Positions 51 through 8,530 of a stretch of 13,318 bases of DNA are shown in pieces. A program made the translations under genes and the position numbers. Origin of the DNA: Leptospiraceae bacterium (GTDB lineage Bacteria > Spirochaetota > Leptospiria > Leptospirales > Leptospiraceae); NCBI GenBank assembly GCA_018057905.1, contig JAGPCV010000036.1, positions 1-13,318 on the forward strand, in the 5' to 3' direction. Numbering within the stretch: the first letter of the stretch is position 1; the number at the start of each line of letters is the position of its first letter. Under the pieces are notes generated by a model, which saw only the letters and a program-made list of their open reading frames with translations, ran no database searches and was not told the DNA's origin.

Positions 51-3000
51 TTGACAGATGCAATGCAGACTCGCTCCGAGTTTATCAAAGCGCAAGACTC
101 TTTTATTTCCGCAATCGAAAGGGATGATAAAGACGAAGCTTACAATATATTAATCAAAGACTTCCGTCCTATTCAATTAAAATACATCGGTCACTTAGAC
201 AAGCTATTAGAATTTCAAGCCACCTTTGCTCAAAATGAAGCAAACCTGTCTGTAGGAAATATAATCGAAGTTACCAATAGAATAACATGGATTTCTATTC
301 TATTTGGAATACTCGTAGCTTATCTTGGTTATACAATCGTAACCTCCATTCTCAATTCCCTCCACAACTTGGAAAAAAATGTCAATGAAATCGGGAAAGA
401 AGGTAACTTTGACACAAGAATAGAAACCGATTCTACAGATGAAATCGGAATATTTGCCTTAAGCTTTAAAGAGATGATGAAAGGTATGAAGGACATGCTC
501 GCAGATGCCAACATGCTTTCCCGCGCTGCCGTTGAAGGAAGACTTGCAACTAGAGCAGACGCATCTAAATACAAAGGTGATATGCGTAAGATTGTAGAAG
601 GGGTTAATCAGACATTAGACGCTGTCATTGGTCCTCTTAACGTTGCTGCTGATTATGTTGATAAAATCTCTCGTGGGGCTATTCCTGCAAAAATTTCCGA
701 CACTTACAACGGAGACTTTAACACAATCAAGAACAACTTGAACAATGCTATTGATAATGTAAACGCACTTGTGGCTGATGCCAGTATGCTTGCGAAAGCA
801 GCAGTAGAAGGTAAACTTGCAACTCGCGCTGATGCTACTAAACACCAAGGTGACTATCGTAAGATTGTAGAAGGGGTTAACCAGACATTAGACTCTGTAA
901 TCAATCCTCTCAATGTTGCGGCTGATTATGTTGATAAAATCTCCCGTGGTGCTATCCCTGCTAAGATTTCCGATACATACAACGGGGACTTCAATGTCAT
1001 CAAGAACAATTTAAACAATGCTATTGATAATGTGAACGCTCTTGTGGCTGACGCCGGTATGCTTGCGAAAGCGGCTATTGAAGGGAAACTCGCAACCCGT
1101 GCCGATGCAACCAAGCACCAAGGCGACTATCGTAAGATTGTAGAAGGGGTTAACCAGACGTTAGACTCTGTGATTGGTCCTCTCAATGTTGCTGCTGATT
1201 ATGTTGATAAAATCTCACGCGGTGCTATTCCCGCTAAGATTTCCGACACTTACAACGGTGACTTCAATGTTATCAAGAACAACTTAAACAACGCGATTGA
1301 TAATGTGAACGCTCTTGTGGCTGATGCTGGTATGCTTGCGAAAGCGGCTATTGAAGGGAAATTGGCAACCCGTGCGGATGCAACCAAACACCAGGGCGAC
1401 TATCGTAAGATCGTGGAAGGGGTTAATCAGACGTTAGACTCTGTAATCAATCCTCTTAACGTTGCCGCTGATTACGTTGATAAAATTTCCCGTGGAGCAA
1501 TCCCTGCAAAGATTACTGACACTTACAACGGGGACTTTAACACAATCAAGAACAATTTAAACAACGCGATTGATAATGTAAACGCACTTGTGGCTGATGC
1601 TGGAATGCTCGCGAAAGCGGCTATTGAAGGTAAGCTCGCAACCCGTGCGGATGCAACCAAACACCAGGGTGACTATCGTAAGATCGTGGAAGGGGTTAAT
1701 CAGACGTTAGACTCTGTTATCAATCCTCTTAACGTAGCTGCTGATTATGTAGATAAAATCTCACGCGGTGCTATTCCATTGAAGATTACTGATACATACA
1801 ACGGTGACTTCAATGTTCTAAAGAATAACTTGAACAACGCAATTGATAATGTAAACGCACTTGTGGCTGACGCTGGAATGCTTGCGAAAGCGGCTATTGA
1901 AGGTAAGCTTGCAACACGTGCTGATGCAACCAAACACCAGGGAGACTATCGTAAGATCGTGGAAGGGGTTAATCAGACGTTAGACTCTGTGATTGGTCCT
2001 CTCAATGTTGCGGCAGATTATGTAGATAAAATCTCTCGCGGGGCAATTCCAAATCAAATTACTGATACTTACAATGGGGATTTCAATACTCTCAAGAACA
2101 ATCTCAATCGTTGTATTGAAAACGTAAATGCACTTGTGGCTGACGCCGGTATGCTTGCGAAAGCGGCTATTGACGGTAAGCTTGCAACACGTGCCGATGC
2201 AACTAAACACCAAGGAGATTTCCGTAAGATTGTAGATGGGGTTAACAACACATTAGACGCTGTGATTCTTCCAGTTCAGGAAGCTTCTTCTGTATTACTT
2301 GAACTCTCTAAAGGTAATTTAAAAGCTAGAATGCTCGGTGATTACAAAGGAGATCATGCTACTATTAAGACAGCTCTTAATACAAGCCTTGTAACTTTAA
2401 ATGACTATGTGGGGGAAATCTCGCGTATCCTATCTTCCATGTCTGCCGGAGACTTATCAGTTGATGTAACAAAAGACTTCATGGGAGACTTTGCTGAAAT
2501 TAAAAAAGCGTTAACTCTCATCGTTGATTCCTTTAATGAACTCATTGGAGAAATCATCAACGCTTCGGATCAAATCCTCATTAGCTCAAGACAAGTCGCT
2601 GACTCAAGTCAATCTCTCTCGCAAGGATCGAACGAGCAAGCTAGTAGTGTTGAAGAGATTACCGCTACGTTAGCCGTCATAGAGCTCAAGGCTAAGGATA
2701 ATGCGAAGAATGCGAAGGACGCAAGTGATCAGGCTATGAACGTGAAAGATCAGGCTGTTTCTAGTAACAACGAAATGAAAGGTATGCTCAAAGCAATGGA
2801 AGAAATCAGCGAAACATCTGAAAATATTGCTAAGATCATCAAAGAAATTGATGCTATCGCATTCCAGACAAACATACTCGCGTTAAACGCCGCTGTAGAA
2901 GCTGCCCGTGCGGGACAACATGGTAAAGGATTTAACGTGGTCGCAGAAGAGGTTCGTAACCTTGCTTCTCGTAGTGCGAACGCAGCGAAAGAAACTACCA

Positions 3001-3368
3001 AGATGATTGAAGGATCTATCAAAACAGTTCGCTCTGGTATGGACATTGCGGGAAGAACTGCAAACGAATTGAATAAGATGACAGCTGGTGTTGTAGATGT
3101 TACAGATCTCGTGAAAGACATTGCGAGTGCATCGATTGAGCAGTCTTCGTCGGTAGTAGAGACTACAACCGGTATCAATCAGATTTCACAGGTGACAATG
3201 AGTGCAGCAGCTACAGCAGAAGAAAGCTCAGCAGCTAGTCTTGAGTTGTCTAGCCAAGCAGAAGCGTTCCAGGCAATGGTGAAGAGATTTCAAATTAAGA
3301 AATCAAAAGATGACAGAAAGAGAGAGCAACAGTCATCCTCGAATAAGAAAAAAATTGATTTGAAGTAA
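51..3368 (+). CDS. Methyl-accepting chemotaxis protein with a poly-HAMP array (about 14 HAMP-like units) and a C-terminal MCP signalling domain. The 5' end is uncertain because the frame is open back to the window start.
   Basis: Translation shows one hydrophobic TM segment ([24 protein letters not shown]), then a canonical HAMP ([17 protein letters not shown]), then 91-aa tandem repeats that each split into two HAMP-like halves (…[31 protein letters not shown]… and …[30 protein letters not shown]…). The highly conserved MCP signalling core follows ([40 protein letters not shown]). Candidate starts are TTG at 51 or ATG at 63, with an AGGAG at 43-47. No stop codon lies upstream in frame within the window. 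Confidence 0.9.
501..2270 (+). repeat. Intragenic tandem repeat: six full and one partial, diverged copies of a 273-bp (91-aa) unit inside the MCP gene
   Basis: The GCT-GA(C/T)-GC(N) (Ala-Asp-Ala) unit boundary recurs at 501, 774, 1047, 1320, 1593, 1866 and 2139, an exact 273-nt period. Units 2-6 are nearly identical at protein level. Unit 1 is slightly diverged, and unit 7 diverges after about 40 codons. Confidence 0.9.
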
Positions 3369-3372
3369 GGAG
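3367..3372 (+). promoter_or_regulatory. Shine-Dalgarno (AAGGAG) for cheW, 8 nt upstream of the ATG and overlapping the mcp stop codon
   Basis: AAGGAG is read directly at 3367-3372, the ATG lies at 3381, and the mcp TAA lies at 3366-3368. Confidence 0.6.
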
Positions 3373-3380
3373 TAAAGTGT

Positions 3381-3869
3381 ATGGCAACGACATTTGAAGA
3401 AGAACAATTAGAAGAATCTGAAGATACTATGGAGGATCTCTATATCATCTTTTTCATCGATGGAAGAGAGTATGGTATAGAGATTCGTTACTTGATTGAA
3501 ATCATTGCGTTTCAACCTGTGACTTTTGTTCCAAACTTACCAGAATATGTTAAGGGAGTAATTAACCTTCGTGGGAAGATTATTCCCGTCATTGATGTGC
3601 GGCTAAGATTCGGTTTACCCAAGATAGACTATACCGAATTCACCTGCATATTGATTATGAATTTTAACAATCTAAGTGCAGGGCTTATCGTCGATGGAGT
3701 CAAAGAAGTTTTAAAAATTCCAAAAGATTGTATTGAGCCCTCACCAGGATTTGAAGAAGCAAATATGGAGCGATTCGTCGATTCCATTGGAAAGTCAGGC
3801 GATACATTGAAAATATTGATCGACCTGAATAAGTTTATTCATGAGAAAGATGTAAAAGGAATTGCTTAG
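3381..3869 (+). CDS. cheW: Chemotaxis coupling protein CheW
   Basis: 162 aa, the typical single CheW-domain size. It has CheW-like motifs (FFIDGREYGIEIRYLIEII…PNLPEYVKGVINLRGKIIPVIDVRLRFGL). It sits between the mcp and cheA. Confidence 0.9.
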   Translation: MATTFEEEQLEESEDTMEDLYIIFFIDGREYGIEIRYLIEIIAFQPVTFVPNLPEYVKGVINLRGKIIPVIDVRLRFGLPKIDYTEFTCILIMNFNNLSAGLIVDGVKEVLKIPKDCIEPSPGFEEANMERFVDSIGKSGDTLKILIDLNKFIHEKDVKGIA

Positions 3870-3877
3870 GTTCTACA

Positions 3878-5758
3878 ATGCTTGGAGAAAATGAACTTTC
3901 AGACCTTGTGCTTGATTCACAAGAGATATTGGATAAAGCAGAAGCAATTCTGATCCAATTGGAAAAAAGTTTAACTGAGTCAACGGTTGACGCAGATAAG
4001 GTAAATTCATTATTCCGCTATTTCCATACACTCAAAGGAAATGCGGGATTTTTCAATTTCAATGTGATAGTAAACCTATCGCATTCAGCAGAATCATTAT
4101 TAGAGATTGTAAGAAATGACAATTCTCTTCTTGATCAAAAAATGATTCAGCTCTTCATGGAAGCAAGAGATACTCTATACGAAATATTCACAAATTTAAA
4201 CGAAAACAAAACAGATACAATGTATAAAGAGAAGGCGGATACTTTAATTCCCCGACTCTTCTATATAAAAGAAAATCTAAAAGCAGAGTCTTCAGAGCCA
4301 AAGAAAGAAGAGCCTAGGTTTGGAATCTTCAAAAAGAAAATTGTGCTTTCTGATACTCCAATAACAGAAGAGGATAATAAGGAGTTGCCAGTTTCGAATG
4401 AACCTGCCCCTACTCCGGAAAATTCAGAATCTGATAAGTTAGATAAACATATTACAGAGAGAGCCACGCAAGAAAATCCTGTTTTAGAAAAAAAGATTCA
4501 AAATACTATAGAGGCAAATAACGGTAATTCGAATGGACAAGCTACAGTAAAAAGAGACATTCGAATCGAAACAGAGAAATTAGATTACCTACTAGACATG
4601 ATTGGTGAGCTAGTGATAGCTGAATCTCTTGTAACTCAAAATCCAGACATCAAAGAACTAGATCTTCCGAACTTTTCTATTCAATCTTCCTATTTACGTA
4701 AAGTAGTCCGTAATCTACAAGAAGTATCCTTGCAGCTAAGGATGATTACCCTCGAAGGTTTGTTTAATAAAATGGAACGACTTGTTCGAGACTTAGCACA
4801 AAAAACAGGAAAGAAAGTGGGTCTTCAAGTTACGGGAAAAGAAACAGAAATTGATAAGAATGCCCTTGAAATATTAACAGATCCACTAGTTCATATTATC
4901 CGCAACTGTATCGATCATGGATTGGAAACAGGCAAAGAGAGATTAGCTAAAGGCAAAGTAGAATCCGGTCATATCAAGATTGAAGCAATGCATTCAGGAA
5001 ATGAAGTATGGATTATTATTTCTGATGATGGTGCAGGCTTAGATAGAGATAGAATTTTGAAAAAAGCAATGGCTCGCGGATTAATCAAAGAAGGAGAAGA
5101 CGAAAATCTAAAAGACGAAAGAATTTGGGATTTTATTTTTCAACCTGGATTCTCGACTAGTGATAGAGTAACTGATATTTCAGGACGCGGAGTAGGACTT
5201 GATATAGTTCGCAGAAATATAGCAAAGATCAACGGCGATGTTGAAATCAAGACGAAAAAAGACCAGGGAGCATCGTTCATTCTAAAGCTACCTCTTACAA
5301 TTGCTATCATTGAAGGTATGGTGGTAATCTACAACGGGGTATTCTATATTATCCCCACAATAGACGTAAAAGAAACACTGAATTTGGCAGAATCGAAAAT
5401 CGACTATATCGATCAGGACAAAAAAGTAATTCGCTTCCGAGAGCAGCTAATACCCGTTGTCTCCGTAGAGAGATTACTCAATCACGATTCAAGTGACAAG
5501 GACTCTAACTACGAAAATTCTTTATATGTAATTATTGTGGAGTATAAGAATAATTCGCTAGCCCTAGTATTTGATGGAATTGTAGGAAATCAATCGGTTG
5601 TAATTAAACCAATTCCAGATTATTTAAAAGGAACAAAGGGCTTTTCAGGTTGCACAATCCTGGGAAGTGGGAATATTGGAATGATTCTAGACATTAGATT
5701 CTTTATTAATAATTACTACAAGGAAAACAAAGAATCCGAAGCAGCACATGGACAATAA
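3878..5758 (+). CDS. cheA: Chemotaxis histidine kinase CheA with P1/HPt, P3, P4/HATPase and P5/CheW-like domains and no recognisable P2
   Basis: HPt motif with the phospho-His (FRYFHTLKGNAGFF). Dimerisation region (IRIETEKLDYLLDMIGELVIAESLV). GHKL N-box (HIIRNCIDHGLE), DDGAGLD, and a G-box (GRGVGLDIV). C-terminal CheW-like domain (IIEGMVVIYNGVFYIIPTIDV…). A roughly 90-aa low-complexity acidic/Pro-rich linker between P1 and P3 replaces a recognisable P2. Confidence 0.9.
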   Translation: MLGENELSDLVLDSQEILDKAEAILIQLEKSLTESTVDADKVNSLFRYFHTLKGNAGFFNFNVIVNLSHSAESLLEIVRNDNSLLDQKMIQLFMEARDTLYEIFTNLNENKTDTMYKEKADTLIPRLFYIKENLKAESSEPKKEEPRFGIFKKKIVLSDTPITEEDNKELPVSNEPAPTPENSESDKLDKHITERATQENPVLEKKIQNTIEANNGNSNGQATVKRDIRIETEKLDYLLDMIGELVIAESLVTQNPDIKELDLPNFSIQSSYLRKVVRNLQEVSLQLRMITLEGLFNKMERLVRDLAQKTGKKVGLQVTGKETEIDKNALEILTDPLVHIIRNCIDHGLETGKERLAKGKVESGHIKIEAMHSGNEVWIIISDDGAGLDRDRILKKAMARGLIKEGEDENLKDERIWDFIFQPGFSTSDRVTDISGRGVGLDIVRRNIAKINGDVEIKTKKDQGASFILKLPLTIAIIEGMVVIYNGVFYIIPTIDVKETLNLAESKIDYIDQDKKVIRFREQLIPVVSVERLLNHDSSDKDSNYENSLYVIIVEYKNNSLALVFDGIVGNQSVVIKPIPDYLKGTKGFSGCTILGSGNIGMILDIRFFINNYYKENKESEAAHGQ

Positions 5759-6827
5759 CAAAAAAATTAAAGTATTTATTGTGGACGACCAAAGAGTCGT
5801 TCGAAATGTTATTCGAAAAATGATAACGACCGATCCGCGCATTGAAGTGGTAGGAGAAGCTTCAAATCCTTTTGAAGCAAGCGAGCTGATTCCAGAAAAA
5901 GAGCCCGATGTTTTAACTCTAGATGTAGAAATGCCTCGCATGGATGGAGTGGAATTTTTGCGAAAGCTTATGCCTCAGTATCCAATCCCTGTGATCATGG
6001 TCAGTAGCACAACTGAGGAAGGTTCAGAGAAAGCAATTTTAGCAATGCAATATGGTGCAGTTGACTTTGTCACAAAGCCAGATGGTGGAGCGATTACTCT
6101 CGAATCAACGCAAGCAGAATTAATTCAAAAGATTAAAACAGCATCTACGATCAATATTGATAGATGGCTCAAGCAATTAAAATATAAATCCATGCCACTC
6201 ATGAATAATCCTATGGCAGGTAAAAATGGAAAGAGTAAATACAATCTTATTGCTATTGGTGCATCAACTGGTGGAGTGACTGCAATACGTCAGGTGCTAT
6301 CTACAGTGCCTAGAGATTTTCCATGCATTGTGATTACTCAGCATATGCCGCCAGGATTTACGGCTACTTTTTCAAAGGGAGTTTCTAAAGATTTCGGACT
6401 TGATGTGCGAGAAGCAAAAGATCAAGATATAATTCAGACAGGAAGAATTTACGTTGCACCGGGAGACTTTCATTTAGTGGTAAATAAAAGAAATGGAATT
6501 AATCACACGGTTGGCTTAAATCGTGCCGAGAAAGTTAACGGACATAGACCATCTGTGGATGTTCTATTTCATTCCATTGTTGATAATAAACTTGCCAGTG
6601 AGACAATTGGCGTTATTTTGACAGGCATGGGAATGGACGGAGCAAAAGGGTTACTAGCAATGCGAGAAGCTGGATCGAGAACCATTGGCGAAAGTGAACA
6701 GTCGGCACTCATATACGGAATGCCGAAAGTTGCTTACGAAATCGGCGGTGTGGAAGAGCAACTTCCCCTTTCTCAAATGGTGAATAAGATAAAAAATTAT
6801 TTAAACTACTCGGGCCAATATGTCTGA
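5748..6827 (+). CDS. cheB: Protein-glutamate methylesterase CheB (N-terminal receiver plus C-terminal methylesterase)
   Basis: Receiver motifs (KVFIVDDQRVVRNVI…DVLTLDVEMPRMDG…VIMVSS…VDFVTKP). Methylesterase motifs (IAIGASTGGVTAIRQVL…CIVITQHMPPGFTATFSK…GMGMDGAKG). The start overlaps the cheA stop by 11 nt. Confidence 0.9.
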   Translation: MDNNKKIKVFIVDDQRVVRNVIRKMITTDPRIEVVGEASNPFEASELIPEKEPDVLTLDVEMPRMDGVEFLRKLMPQYPIPVIMVSSTTEEGSEKAILAMQYGAVDFVTKPDGGAITLESTQAELIQKIKTASTINIDRWLKQLKYKSMPLMNNPMAGKNGKSKYNLIAIGASTGGVTAIRQVLSTVPRDFPCIVITQHMPPGFTATFSKGVSKDFGLDVREAKDQDIIQTGRIYVAPGDFHLVVNKRNGINHTVGLNRAEKVNGHRPSVDVLFHSIVDNKLASETIGVILTGMGMDGAKGLLAMREAGSRTIGESEQSALIYGMPKVAYEIGGVEEQLPLSQMVNKIKNYLNYSGQYV

Positions 6828-8067
6828 TAAAATATTACTCTATACTCAAAACAAAGAAATAACAGAGCAGGTGAAAACCTACGTTGATGATCTTACTTAC
6901 GCTTTCAACGTAGCGGATAATATGGATAATCTCACAAGTTATCTTAAATCAGATGACACATGGCTACTCGTTTATGATTTTCTTGACACGAGTAGCGAAA
7001 ATCAAAAAAATCTTGGAAATATTCTTTCCGAATATCCATTTCAATTGGTTATTCTATTAATCAATCGAGAGGAAGGAGACAAGTTTCTACAAATGATGGA
7101 AAACTATCATGTGTATGATATTATCTCCTACCCAATTTATAAATTCAATTTTCATTTTGCGATAACAAAGGCTATCACCTACGGAAAGGTGATGTCCAAG
7201 ATTTCTGATTTTAAATCAAACGAGAAACAAGTTTTCGAATCCATGATTAAAGTATTTGATTGGAGAAAAGAACTTGATACTAGAAAAGTCGAATCTCTTG
7301 CAAATGAATTAATACACCAAATCAATATTAGCTTCTTCCATGGAAGTGGTCTCGGATCACTTATTAGCACACTGAGTATTTTATTTTCAAAAGCTAAATT
7401 AGATGAAGAGAAAAAAGTTTACTTAGTTCATGAAAAAATTTATCACCTATTAAAAGACAACTACGACGAAATTCTAAAACTAAGTGATAGTTTAACTAAA
7501 ACACAAGCCATATTAGCGGAAAAGGATTTTTATATAGGGAAATTAACCCTGAAAGATTTCTATGCTGCATTAACCGAAATGGTAAAAGGTATGAAACCAG
7601 TTGCTGGAATTAAAAATCAGAAGATAGTTATGGGTGATTTTCCAAGAGACCTAGCCGGAAGATCAATTACTGCCAGCCCAGAAAATTTGAAGCTAGTCTT
7701 TGATGAATTATTAACAAATGCAATTAAATACTCGGAAGATGGAGATACAATCTATATTCTATTTTCACATGATAAAACGGATTTTGGAATCAGAATCCTG
7801 AATCCCGCCTACAAGAATTCAGACGGAACAGTGGGGATAACGGAGAGTAATGCGCATAAAATCTTTGAACCATTTTTTCGATTGACTAATGTTGTAGATG
7901 ATAGATTCATGCAGGAAACATTTCGATTTGGTCTGGGTTTGACAGTTGTAAATAAAATTATTGATTTACACAAAGGGAGTATTTCGTTTTATACAACAGA
8001 CAATAATATGAGACGAGAAAACAATATGAAAGATGTATGCGTTTGGGTTCGATTTCCAATTTTATAA
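6820..8067 (+). CDS. Atypical signalling protein: degenerate (pseudo-)receiver N-domain, a roughly 150-aa middle region of unclear type, and a C-terminal histidine-kinase-like (GHKL) ATPase domain
   Basis: The N-terminal 120 aa have receiver-like beta/alpha periodicity (KILLYTQN…WLLVYDFLDTSS…QLVILLINRE…YDIISYP). They lack the acidic DD pair and the conserved Lys. The C-terminus has an N-box (LVFDELLTNAIKYS), a G1-like box (HDKTDFGI), an F-box (FEPFFR) and a G2 box (RFGLGLTVV). No canonical H-box was seen; the nearest is ELIHQINISF. It overlaps the cheB stop by 8 nt (ATGTCTGA), so it is translationally coupled. Confidence 0.6.
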   Translation: MSDKILLYTQNKEITEQVKTYVDDLTYAFNVADNMDNLTSYLKSDDTWLLVYDFLDTSSENQKNLGNILSEYPFQLVILLINREEGDKFLQMMENYHVYDIISYPIYKFNFHFAITKAITYGKVMSKISDFKSNEKQVFESMIKVFDWRKELDTRKVESLANELIHQINISFFHGSGLGSLISTLSILFSKAKLDEEKKVYLVHEKIYHLLKDNYDEILKLSDSLTKTQAILAEKDFYIGKLTLKDFYAALTEMVKGMKPVAGIKNQKIVMGDFPRDLAGRSITASPENLKLVFDELLTNAIKYSEDGDTIYILFSHDKTDFGIRILNPAYKNSDGTVGITESNAHKIFEPFFRLTNVVDDRFMQETFRFGLGLTVVNKIIDLHKGSISFYTTDNNMRRENNMKDVCVWVRFPIL

Positions 8068-8075
8068 AAAAGGCA

Positions 8076-8081
8076 AGGAAG
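8076..8081 (+). promoter_or_regulatory. Shine-Dalgarno-like AGGAAG, 4 nt upstream of the cheY ATG
   Basis: Read directly at 8076-8081. The ATG lies at 8086. Confidence 0.45.
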
Positions 8082-8085
8082 TATT

Positions 8086-8445
8086 ATGAAAAAAGTTCTT
8101 ATAGTTGATGATTCTCCAATGGTTTTGAATATAATTGAGACTGCCCTAAGCCTCGAAGATTATGATGTAGTTAGAGCGTCTAATGCCGATGAGGCGCTAA
8201 AAAAAATTGAAGAAGGAAAATTCGATTTTGGAATATTCGACGTAAATATGCCTGGCAAGACTGGAATCGAACTTGTCCCACTAGTTTTAAATCATCCCAA
8301 CGGCAAATCAATGAAGATTGTAATTTTGACCACCGAGTCTAGTGCTGAGATTCGTAAAAAAGGAGAAGACGCAGGAGCATCTGCCTGGATGGTAAAACCA
8401 TTTAAAAATGCTGAAATGATTGACCTGCTAAAACAATTAGAGTAG
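8086..8445 (+). CDS. cheY: Single-domain response regulator of CheY type
   Basis: 119 aa. All receiver signature residues are present: DD (KVLIVDDSP), phospho-Asp (GIFDVNMPG), Thr (VILTTES) and Lys (WMVKPF). It is the last gene of the che cluster. Confidence 0.85.
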   Translation: MKKVLIVDDSPMVLNIIETALSLEDYDVVRASNADEALKKIEEGKFDFGIFDVNMPGKTGIELVPLVLNHPNGKSMKIVILTTESSAEIRKKGEDAGASAWMVKPFKNAEMIDLLKQLE

Positions 8446-8530
8446 TCACTCAAAGTAAAAAATAAAACGAATATTTTTCTACTTGCTTGTTCTATTATTC
8501 AAATTAAGATTTGCAGAATAAACTATTAGC

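Follow-up and report, generated by a model that had tools for sequence, protein, structure and literature searches.

What is a protein with the outline of a receiver-bearing histidine kinase doing between a CheB methylesterase and a single-domain CheY? The question is posed by a chemotaxis (che) operon on contig JAGPCV010000036.1 of a Leptospiraceae bacterium (GenBank assembly GCA_018057905.1), which was analyzed over its whole length of 13,318 nucleotides (the window). The 415-aa product of open reading frame (ORF) 6820-8067 is referred to here as the target, and the genes of its family in che clusters as X, X', X'' and X'''. A preliminary description, made from the letters alone, had read the target as a receiver-like domain joined to an ATPase domain of the histidine kinase type. 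Analysis of its domains, relatives and gene neighborhoods leads us to propose, with moderate confidence, that the target is a degenerate receiver (Rec)-controlled histidine kinase, repurposed as a non-kinase accessory of the che pathway that modulates CheY or its phosphorylated form, CheY~P.

The N-terminal domain is a REC homologue with the (beta-alpha)5 fold of CheY: the family profile matched the NtrC1 receiver with E 4e-28 and CheY receivers with E values of about 3e-21. Pfam returned no match to Response_reg (PF00072) in the target at E <= 0.1, and this family is carried by more distant full-length relatives (about 37 relatives found, 410-450 aa). Only D53, in the phospho-acceptor column, is left of the active-site quintet D, D, D, T/S, K. 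The absence of the Asp-Asp pair and the Lys, and the position of D53, had been read correctly by eye (the columns hold T9/Q10, N82 and Y104), and a normal receiver misread in that way can be set aside: this is a true pseudo-receiver. Because the metal-binding Asp pair and the Lys are absent, the domain is probably not phosphorylatable. Across the family most receivers do look phosphorylatable, with D10 in 112, D53 in 135 and K104 in 125 of the 158 full-length members.

By profile comparison, the middle region is a divergent dimerization and histidine phosphotransfer (DHp) domain with a non-canonical H-box. The preliminary description had found neither an H-box nor a DHp domain here. When hhalign was used to compare the family profile with one built from 22 HisKA+HATPase kinases, the alignment (Prob 99.8%, E 5e-29) covered residues 158-415 and placed H166 (LIHQINISF) on the phospho-acceptor His of SHELRTPL, followed by a six-residue insertion, HGSGLG. 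Thus the H-box is indeed not canonical, as had been stated, but a His is present at the canonical site. The middle region alone aligned with HisKA kinases in the same register (Prob 62%, E 8e-5); against PDB sequences its best E value was 0.15, and the matches were de novo helical bundles. In the AlphaFold2 (AF2) model, the receiver is followed by a long helix at residues 108-150 and by another at 156-191; a short hairpin leads to a third helix (205-233), after which comes the catalytic and ATP-binding (CA) domain. None of the Pfam or NCBIfam models covers the middle domain: Pfam reported HATPase-type families only, with no HisKA match at E <= 0.1, and no NCBIfam model reached its cut-off (best 57.6 bits versus a cut-off of 342).

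In the HisKA motif H-E/D-x-x-T/N, the acidic residue is required only for kinase activity and the Thr/Asn only for phosphatase activity (Willett & Kirby 2012, PMC3510030). The residue following H166 (H+1) is Q167, which is not acidic, and among 158 members this column holds N, Q or S in 142 and D in two, with E never among the residues listed. At H+4 the target has I170, as does the whole of its clade (clade A, below), which is neither Thr nor Asn. The phospho-His column itself has no consensus among the 158 members (H 45, E 19, Y 17, S 15, R 11, Q 10, D 10, T 7, others). His is kept in all close orthologues and most of clade A, and is R or K in some orthologues. Far better conserved are the glycines of the Q/H-G-x-G-x-G motif (G175 in 149, G177 and G179 each in 156 of 158) and the aromatic W148 column of the preceding linker (W, Y or F in 145 of 158).

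The C-terminal CA domain matches Pfam HATPase_c (PF02518) over residues 287-413 (E 1.3e-14). Its N box (296-305), F box (349-354, with P351 and R354) and G2 box (371-375) are intact; E296, N300, P351, G371 and G373 are invariant in 158 of 158 members, K303 is K in 154 and R354 is kept in 157. In GHKL proteins the Asp of the G1 box hydrogen-bonds N6 of adenine. A conserved G1 Asp (DxGxG) was not found in the family in any alignment register. Two hhalign runs put the canonical Asp opposite D335 or residue 327, both in variable columns, and position 328 is N in 138 and S in 20 members and never D. As the exact equivalence of the Asp differs between alignments, the claim is limited to this: no Asp is conserved, and at the end of that strand the invariant residue is N328. 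The preliminary description named the N, F and G2 boxes correctly, whereas its G1-like box, SDGTVGI, proved clade-specific rather than family-conserved. Given an invariant Asn at the G1 Asp position and intact phosphate- and Mg-binding boxes, one may ask which ligand this domain binds.

Autophosphorylation needs both the H+1 acid and the G1 Asp. As both are missing and H166 is replaced by Arg or Lys in orthologues, we infer that the target is not an autokinase; the same observations make the previously suggested kinase acting on CheY or CheB unlikely. The gene is nonetheless under constraint. Ratios of nonsynonymous to synonymous substitution (dN/dS) were obtained against the 86-88% identical orthologues in loci L001 and L010 only (L013 was excluded, since an indel breaks the ungapped codon comparison), and are rough because dS is saturated: 0.10-0.14 for the pseudo-receiver and 0.02-0.05 for DHp plus CA. 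Over the 33 residues of the linker (126-158), amino acid identity to these orthologues is 100% even though synonymous sites are saturated. These comparisons indicate that all target domains are functional and that the linker is the most constrained, which fits allosteric coupling as shown for the signaling helix of LvrB.

When 1.84 billion cluster representatives (50% identity clusters) were searched with a middle-domain profile (residues 128-290), 368 proteins matched with E <= 1e-3, 315 with E <= 1e-10 and 56 with E <= 1e-30, which puts the family at no fewer than 315 clusters. Nearly all are 405-430 aa long with the domain at about 129-290, and the target scores at the top. The family can be defined by a length of about 410-430 aa, an FDW-like motif and Q/H-G-x-G-x-G in the middle domain, N or S at 328 and invariant N, F and G2 boxes, a description that the target fits. 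Every named member is assigned to Leptospira, Leptospiraceae, Leptonemataceae, Leptospirales or 'Spirochaetota', and searches of the literature on Leptospira chemotaxis turned up no paper describing the family. Database labels like 'sensor histidine kinase' and 'response regulator' mislead when applied to it.

A neighbor-joining tree of the linker-DHp-CA region resolved three paralogous clades, which occupy three types of che operon. Clade A, to which the target belongs, is monophyletic with the motif x-Q-x-N-I and H, R or K in the His column; His is probably ancestral to it, having changed to Arg twice and to Lys once. The Arg cases all lie in lineages with an intact DD-D-K receiver. In His-bearing lineages, the target's included, the receiver degenerated several times independently, and H166 is conserved in all clade A members with a degenerate receiver. 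Clade B, the sister group of clade A, has a pseudo-receiver and reads P-N-L-N-T, with Pro in the His column. Clade C retains a canonical receiver in 118-120 of 120 members, and its H-box reads x-N-L-K-T-S-L compared with H-E-L-R-T-P-L in HisKA: the His column is L, F, Y or E, with His in only 3 of 120, and Thr occupies H+4 in 119 of 120. Thr at H+4 is thus present in both clades B and C. The loss of kinase residues with retention of the phosphatase residue in clade C is the strongest internal hint to the chemistry of the family.

Gene neighborhoods were compared in 63 loci whose genes were tagged by BLASTP with the window proteins, plus Pfam-annotated contigs; the pattern used to scan loci was based on clade A, and clades B and C are under-sampled. 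Type A clusters, including that of the target, have the order MCP-CheW-CheA-(CheR)-(CheB)-X-CheY, where MCP is a methyl-accepting chemotaxis protein, and occur in metagenome-assembled genomes of Leptospiraceae, in L. levettii, L. yanagawae, L. ilyithenensis and L. jelokensis, and in a Leptonemataceae genome. Type B is X'-CheW-MCP-CheA-CheB-CheY, sometimes followed by X'' (L026-L030, L032), and type C is PAS histidine kinase-X'''-CheY-STAS-CheA-MCP-CheW-CheD-CheB (L037, L038, L046, L054, L064). In all 16 tagged loci with type A orthologues, CheA, or CheB after CheA, lies directly upstream and CheY directly downstream, and this synteny is kept down to about 32% identity. CheY directly follows every complete type A and type C member examined, and the type B tail copy directly follows cheY; the spacings to cheY in these cases run from a 4-nt overlap to a gap of about 27 nt. 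Since orthologues are this tightly linked to che genes, the earlier suggestion of a lineage-specific chemotaxis component holds, and the co-occurrence with che clusters that it called for is found.

The upstream side is less constant. The overlap of the target start codon with the cheB stop is as previously described (ATG at 6820, TGA at 6825-6827, reading ATGTCTGA), and orthologues repeatedly overlap the gene upstream by 1-8 nt; in clusters without cheB, however, it is cheA that X overlaps (L015) or directly adjoins (L014). The deduction from the overlap that the target and the methylesterase are co-expressed stoichiometrically is therefore not specific, because the coupling to cheB is not conserved and the near-invariant neighbor is cheY. 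Translational coupling specific to cheB was accordingly rejected as a functional clue.

One species may hold several cluster types, and every type comes with separate X and CheY paralogues: L. ilyithenensis has A, B and C, and the 5.16-Mb contig of a close relative of the target carries clade A and clade C copies. Type C is genus-wide and includes L. biflexa Patoc and L. interrogans. In type A clusters of Leptospira, two CheY genes follow X. Some family members are orphans or stand among other two-component genes (L005, L009, L016, L019, L024). A Pfam scan bore out the earlier remark that the window encodes no CheR, CheD, CheC or CheX, and it found no CheZ either; none of CheZ, CheX and CheC occurs in the annotated type A loci. 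In one Leptonemataceae genome, the type A cluster has a CheR gene between cheA and cheB (L023, 4717-5670); therefore, the lack of cheR in the cluster of the window is specific to its lineage and not a type A trait.

Several further features of the other cluster types were recorded. The type C paralogue stands directly before cheY at 3924-5186 in the L. interrogans locus L064 and at 7508-8866 in L038, and likewise in L037, L046 and L054; LytB comes first in this operon, before the PAS histidine kinase, and databases name X''' only 'response regulator'. In type B clusters of saprophytic Leptospira, a pseudo-receiver paralogue heads the operon and is tandemly duplicated in L. ilyithenensis. The second type B paralogue, with an intact receiver, follows cheY. 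Type B copies lie at 4457-5806 and 6653-7915 in L026 and at 6872-8140 and 13621-14868 in L032.

A mechanism is proposed in which a dimeric DHp domain of the target would dock the co-encoded CheY, most likely as CheY~P, in the way that DHp domains of histidine kinases dock response regulators. Docking may then alter the lifetime or availability of CheY~P, whether through dephosphorylation, through sequestration or through sensing of the phosphorylated state in the manner of DivL. The pseudo-receiver and the highly conserved linker helix could form an allosteric or partner-binding module. That H166 is swapped only for Arg or Lys suggests an electrostatic contact, in which the clade's basic residue at 166 (H, R or K) would touch the phosphoryl group rather than accept phosphate. 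In the sister clades with an intact receiver, CheA may phosphorylate that receiver, which would turn the activity on or off. The clade C sequences predict a receiver-controlled phosphatase fairly specifically; the prediction is weaker for the target's clade, where H+4 is Ile. There, the invariant N169 at H+3 might substitute for H+4, or the target might bind and sense like DivL. Purifying selection on all parts of the protein shows that function is kept, each type of che cluster has its own X and CheY with cheY adjacent in types A and C and at the type B tail copy, clade C provides a phosphatase precedent within the family, and CheZ, CheX and CheC are missing from the window and the annotated type A loci.

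These proposals can be set against known systems. The closest is LvrB, the prototype Rec-controlled histidine kinase of pathogenic Leptospira (PDB 8vc9; PMC13269768), which is the best Foldseek match to the target (8vc9, E 6e-17) and has the same order of Rec, signaling helix, DHp and CA in 378 versus 415 aa, with D56 and H161 for D53 and H166. LvrB differs in having a phosphorylatable Rec, in autophosphorylating H161 and passing the phosphate to LvrC (a Rec-anti-sigma protein), and in not being che-linked (PMC13269768). In the target, in turn, the Asp-Asp pair and the Lys of the receiver, the acid at H+1 and the G1 Asp are missing, and the QGxGxG insertion is present. In DivL of Caulobacter, Tyr replaces the His of an otherwise normal H-box, and PAS domains lie at the N terminus. 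Like the target, DivL has a kinase-like DHp-CA unit whose phospho-acceptor role is lost; it is a pseudo-histidine kinase that senses DivK~P, and its DHp domain has been proposed to read the phosphorylation state of this single-domain response regulator (PMC4211667). It differs in signaling to CckA and in having neither a receiver domain nor a che context.

CheS3 of Rhodospirillum centenum is, like the target, a receiver-containing histidine kinase in a che-like cluster beside a single-domain CheY; its receiver is phosphorylated by CheA as a control, and CheS3 is a true kinase and the sole donor to CheY3 (PMC3868531). It offers a good parallel to those family members whose receiver is intact, whereas the residues for kinase activity are missing in the target family. 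Spo0B and ChpT have a DHp-like helical hairpin bearing an essential, conserved His, and a CA-like domain that has lost its nucleotide boxes and does not drive autophosphorylation. The target shares the hairpin with its His and the CA-like domain, but the N, F and G2 boxes of its family are invariant and its His gives way to R or K in orthologues. The pseudo-receivers of CikA and ShkA sit in active kinases, and that of ShkA binds c-di-GMP. They resemble the target domain in being receiver folds without phospho-acceptor chemistry that serve as a regulatory or ligand module on a histidine kinase core. The CheY-P phosphatases CheZ, CheC, CheX and FliY each present an amide residue from a helix (PMC3510030). 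They have no sequence or fold relationship to the kinase-derived target (a Pfam scan of the target gave no match to PF04344 or PF04509) and share with it only the proposed termination of CheY~P signaling.

The intact N, F and G2 boxes, the exact alignment of H166 with the phospho-His and its retention in all close orthologues and most of clade A would also suit a protein that works through H166, either as a kinase whose receiver is dead and which phosphorylates the CheY encoded downstream, or as a Spo0B/ChpT-like relay or sink for phosphate from CheY~P. There is a precedent in CheS3, a Rec-histidine kinase of a che cluster that is by itself the one to phosphorylate the CheY (PMC3868531), and the two CheY genes after X in Leptospira type A clusters would fit a relay. 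We nevertheless consider phosphotransfer through H166 unlikely. Q167 replaces the acid required for autophosphorylation (PMC3510030), the G1 Asp is missing, orthologues in the same operon position have Arg (twice) or Lys (once) for H166, and no His is conserved family-wide; the invariant N, F and G2 boxes are moreover unlike the degenerate CA domains of Spo0B and ChpT. Somewhat more doubtful still is a nucleotide-dependent scaffold or regulator of the array or the adaptation branch (CheA, CheB, receptors), in which CheY is not involved and the pseudo-receiver mimics the docking of CheB or CheY on CheA. It would account for the overlap of the target start with cheB, or with cheA where cheB is absent, for purifying selection on the pseudo-receiver, for the clade B copies beside cheW and an MCP gene rather than cheY, and for a window cluster with CheB and no CheR. 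It sits poorly with a CheY that stays constant downstream in types A and C while the upstream neighbor varies between CheB and CheA, and with conservation that peaks in the DHp, linker and CA parts rather than in the pseudo-receiver; the DHp domain is also the module on which response regulators dock across histidine kinases.

Relatives are annotated as 'sensor histidine kinase', 'hybrid sensor histidine kinase/response regulator' or 'ATP-binding response regulator', and the target could in principle be an ordinary hybrid kinase misjudged through divergence, an outcome the preliminary description had named as contrary to its own reading. This is very improbable and is contradicted by the residues themselves: the receiver has neither the Asp-Asp pair nor the Lys, and the acid at H+1, Thr/Asn at H+4 and the G1 Asp are missing as well. 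Neither HisKA nor Response_reg is matched in the target by Pfam at E <= 0.1, and the best NCBIfam score stays at 57.6 bits against 342. The loss of catalytic residues in both the receiver and kinase parts might instead be put down to a decaying gene without function. We give this next to no credence, as it is contradicted by reading frames intact in all relatives examined, a dN/dS of about 0.05, a linker that is 100% conserved at saturated dS, and synteny kept down to 32% identity.

A non-kinase modulator of CheY or CheY~P also has evidence weighing against it. The suggested complex with CheY draws on gene adjacency only, and clade B copies at the operon head lie beside cheW, not cheY. With Ile at H+4 throughout the target's clade, the canonical HisKA rule predicts no phosphatase activity either, and a phosphatase role for N169 at H+3 is speculation. 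The conservation of H166 in all clade members with a degenerate receiver fits phosphotransfer as well, and genes for CheX, CheC or CheZ could lie in other parts of these genomes.

The coordinates of the target, its parts and the neighboring genes are collected in the table below; all annotated genes of the window are on the + strand. No Shine-Dalgarno-like motif was seen upstream of the target ATG, unlike the start of cheY, which is preceded by AAGGAAG. A scan of 3300-8700 found no excess of promoter- or terminator-like matches over shuffled sequence (17 promoter-like sites versus 19.9 expected) and gave no sign of internal transcription units; this is consistent with one operon but says little else.

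Table. Features of the window, by position; nt coordinates are those of the 13,318-nt stretch.
Feature	Position (nt)	Strand	Basis and details
MCP with poly-HAMP array, first gene of cluster	51-3368	+	Pfam HAMP_2 x8 + MCPsignal
CheW	3381-3869	+	Pfam
CheA	3878-5758	+	Pfam; Hpt, dimerization, HATPase_c and CheW-like domains
CheB, gene upstream of target	5748-6827	+	Pfam; REC + methylesterase
Target gene, 415 aa, stop codon included	6820-8067	+	ORF list; 37 full-length homologues; dN/dS ~0.05-0.06 vs 86-88% identical orthologues
Overlap of target ATG and cheB stop, ATGTCTGA	6820-6827	+	Sequence read
Pseudo-receiver, aa 1-125	6820-7194	+	T9/Q10 for Asp-Asp, D53 kept (codon 6976-6978), N82 for Thr/Ser, Y104 for Lys
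Signaling-helix linker, aa 126-158	7195-7293	+	FDW motif F146 D147 W148; 100% aa identity to orthologues
Divergent DHp, aa 159-240	7294-7539	+	Helix 156-191, hairpin 193-202, helix 205-233
Vestigial H-box, H166-Q167-I168-N169-I170	7315-7329	+	H166 codon 7315-7317, phospho-His column
Family-specific H/Q-G-x-G-x-G motif, H174-G179	7339-7356	+	Six-residue insertion vs HisKA helix 1 (hhalign)
CA domain (HATPase_c), aa 241-415	7540-8064	+	Pfam PF02518; N box 7705-7734 (E296, N300, K303), N328 7801-7803, F box 7864-7881, G2 box 7930-7944
Single-domain CheY, canonical, 18 nt 3' of target	8086-8445	+	Pfam Response_reg E 3.5e-24
Major-vault-protein-like protein, 830 aa	8542-11034	+	Pfam
MASE1-PAS_3-HisKA-HATPase_c sensor kinase, partial at 3' end of window	11350-13317	+	Pfam

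Other genes of the window have features of their own. Directly 3' of cheY lies the gene for a bacterial protein homologous to the major vault protein (MVP) of eukaryotes: Pfam found MVP_shoulder (6e-24), Vault_3 (1.7e-8) and Band_7 (9e-6), and phmmer matched the rat and human MVP structures with E 1.3e-11, residues 456-594 aligning with MVP 462-607 in proteins of similar total length. The gene is syntenic, at 88-93% identity, in L001 and L010-L012. A 96-aa ORF (10982-11272, +) overlaps its 3' end and encodes a Cys-rich product with a hydrophobic N terminus and without a Pfam match; L001 has a 149-aa gene call at this position. The eight HAMP_2 domains of the MCP stem from a 273-nt tandem repeat (532-2267, 6.4 copies, 86% matches), and orthologue lengths of 1033 aa (L010) and 1490 aa (L001) suggest that the number of HAMP repeats varies rapidly. 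The partial MASE1 kinase is represented in L001 by a complete orthologue of 818 aa, which has an additional C-terminal receiver.

Each single element of the target family has precedents: Rec-controlled histidine kinases (LvrB, PhcR), a pseudokinase (DivL), pseudo-receivers (CikA, ShkA) and a receiver-kinase in a che cluster (CheS3). We did not find described in the literature searched a sizeable, lineage-restricted family that combines a His-less, HisKA-derived DHp domain with QGxGxG and Asn for the G1 Asp, with one paralogue per che operon; nor did searches of the literature on Leptospira chemotaxis yield anything about how CheY~P is switched off in leptospiral pathways. A broader proposal, which we offer tentatively as possible rather than likely, is that receiver-controlled, His-less HisKA derivatives found across Leptospirales constitute an unrecognized class of chemotaxis auxiliaries, marked by the QGxGxG insertion in the DHp and by Asn where the adenine-binding Asp would be. 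Every che operon, the main one of L. interrogans among them, would then have its own paralogue, serving that pathway as a CheY~P phosphatase or feedback module. Their Bergerat domain may read a nucleotide other than ATP, and the target would be a further-derived member that has lost the receiver switch. The family offers a natural experiment, in which clade C loses the His and the acid and keeps the phosphatase Thr, while clade A keeps the His without either helper. For the biology of Leptospira and its relatives, it provides a testable candidate component in each of three types of che operon, one paralogue of which is genus-wide, pathogens included.

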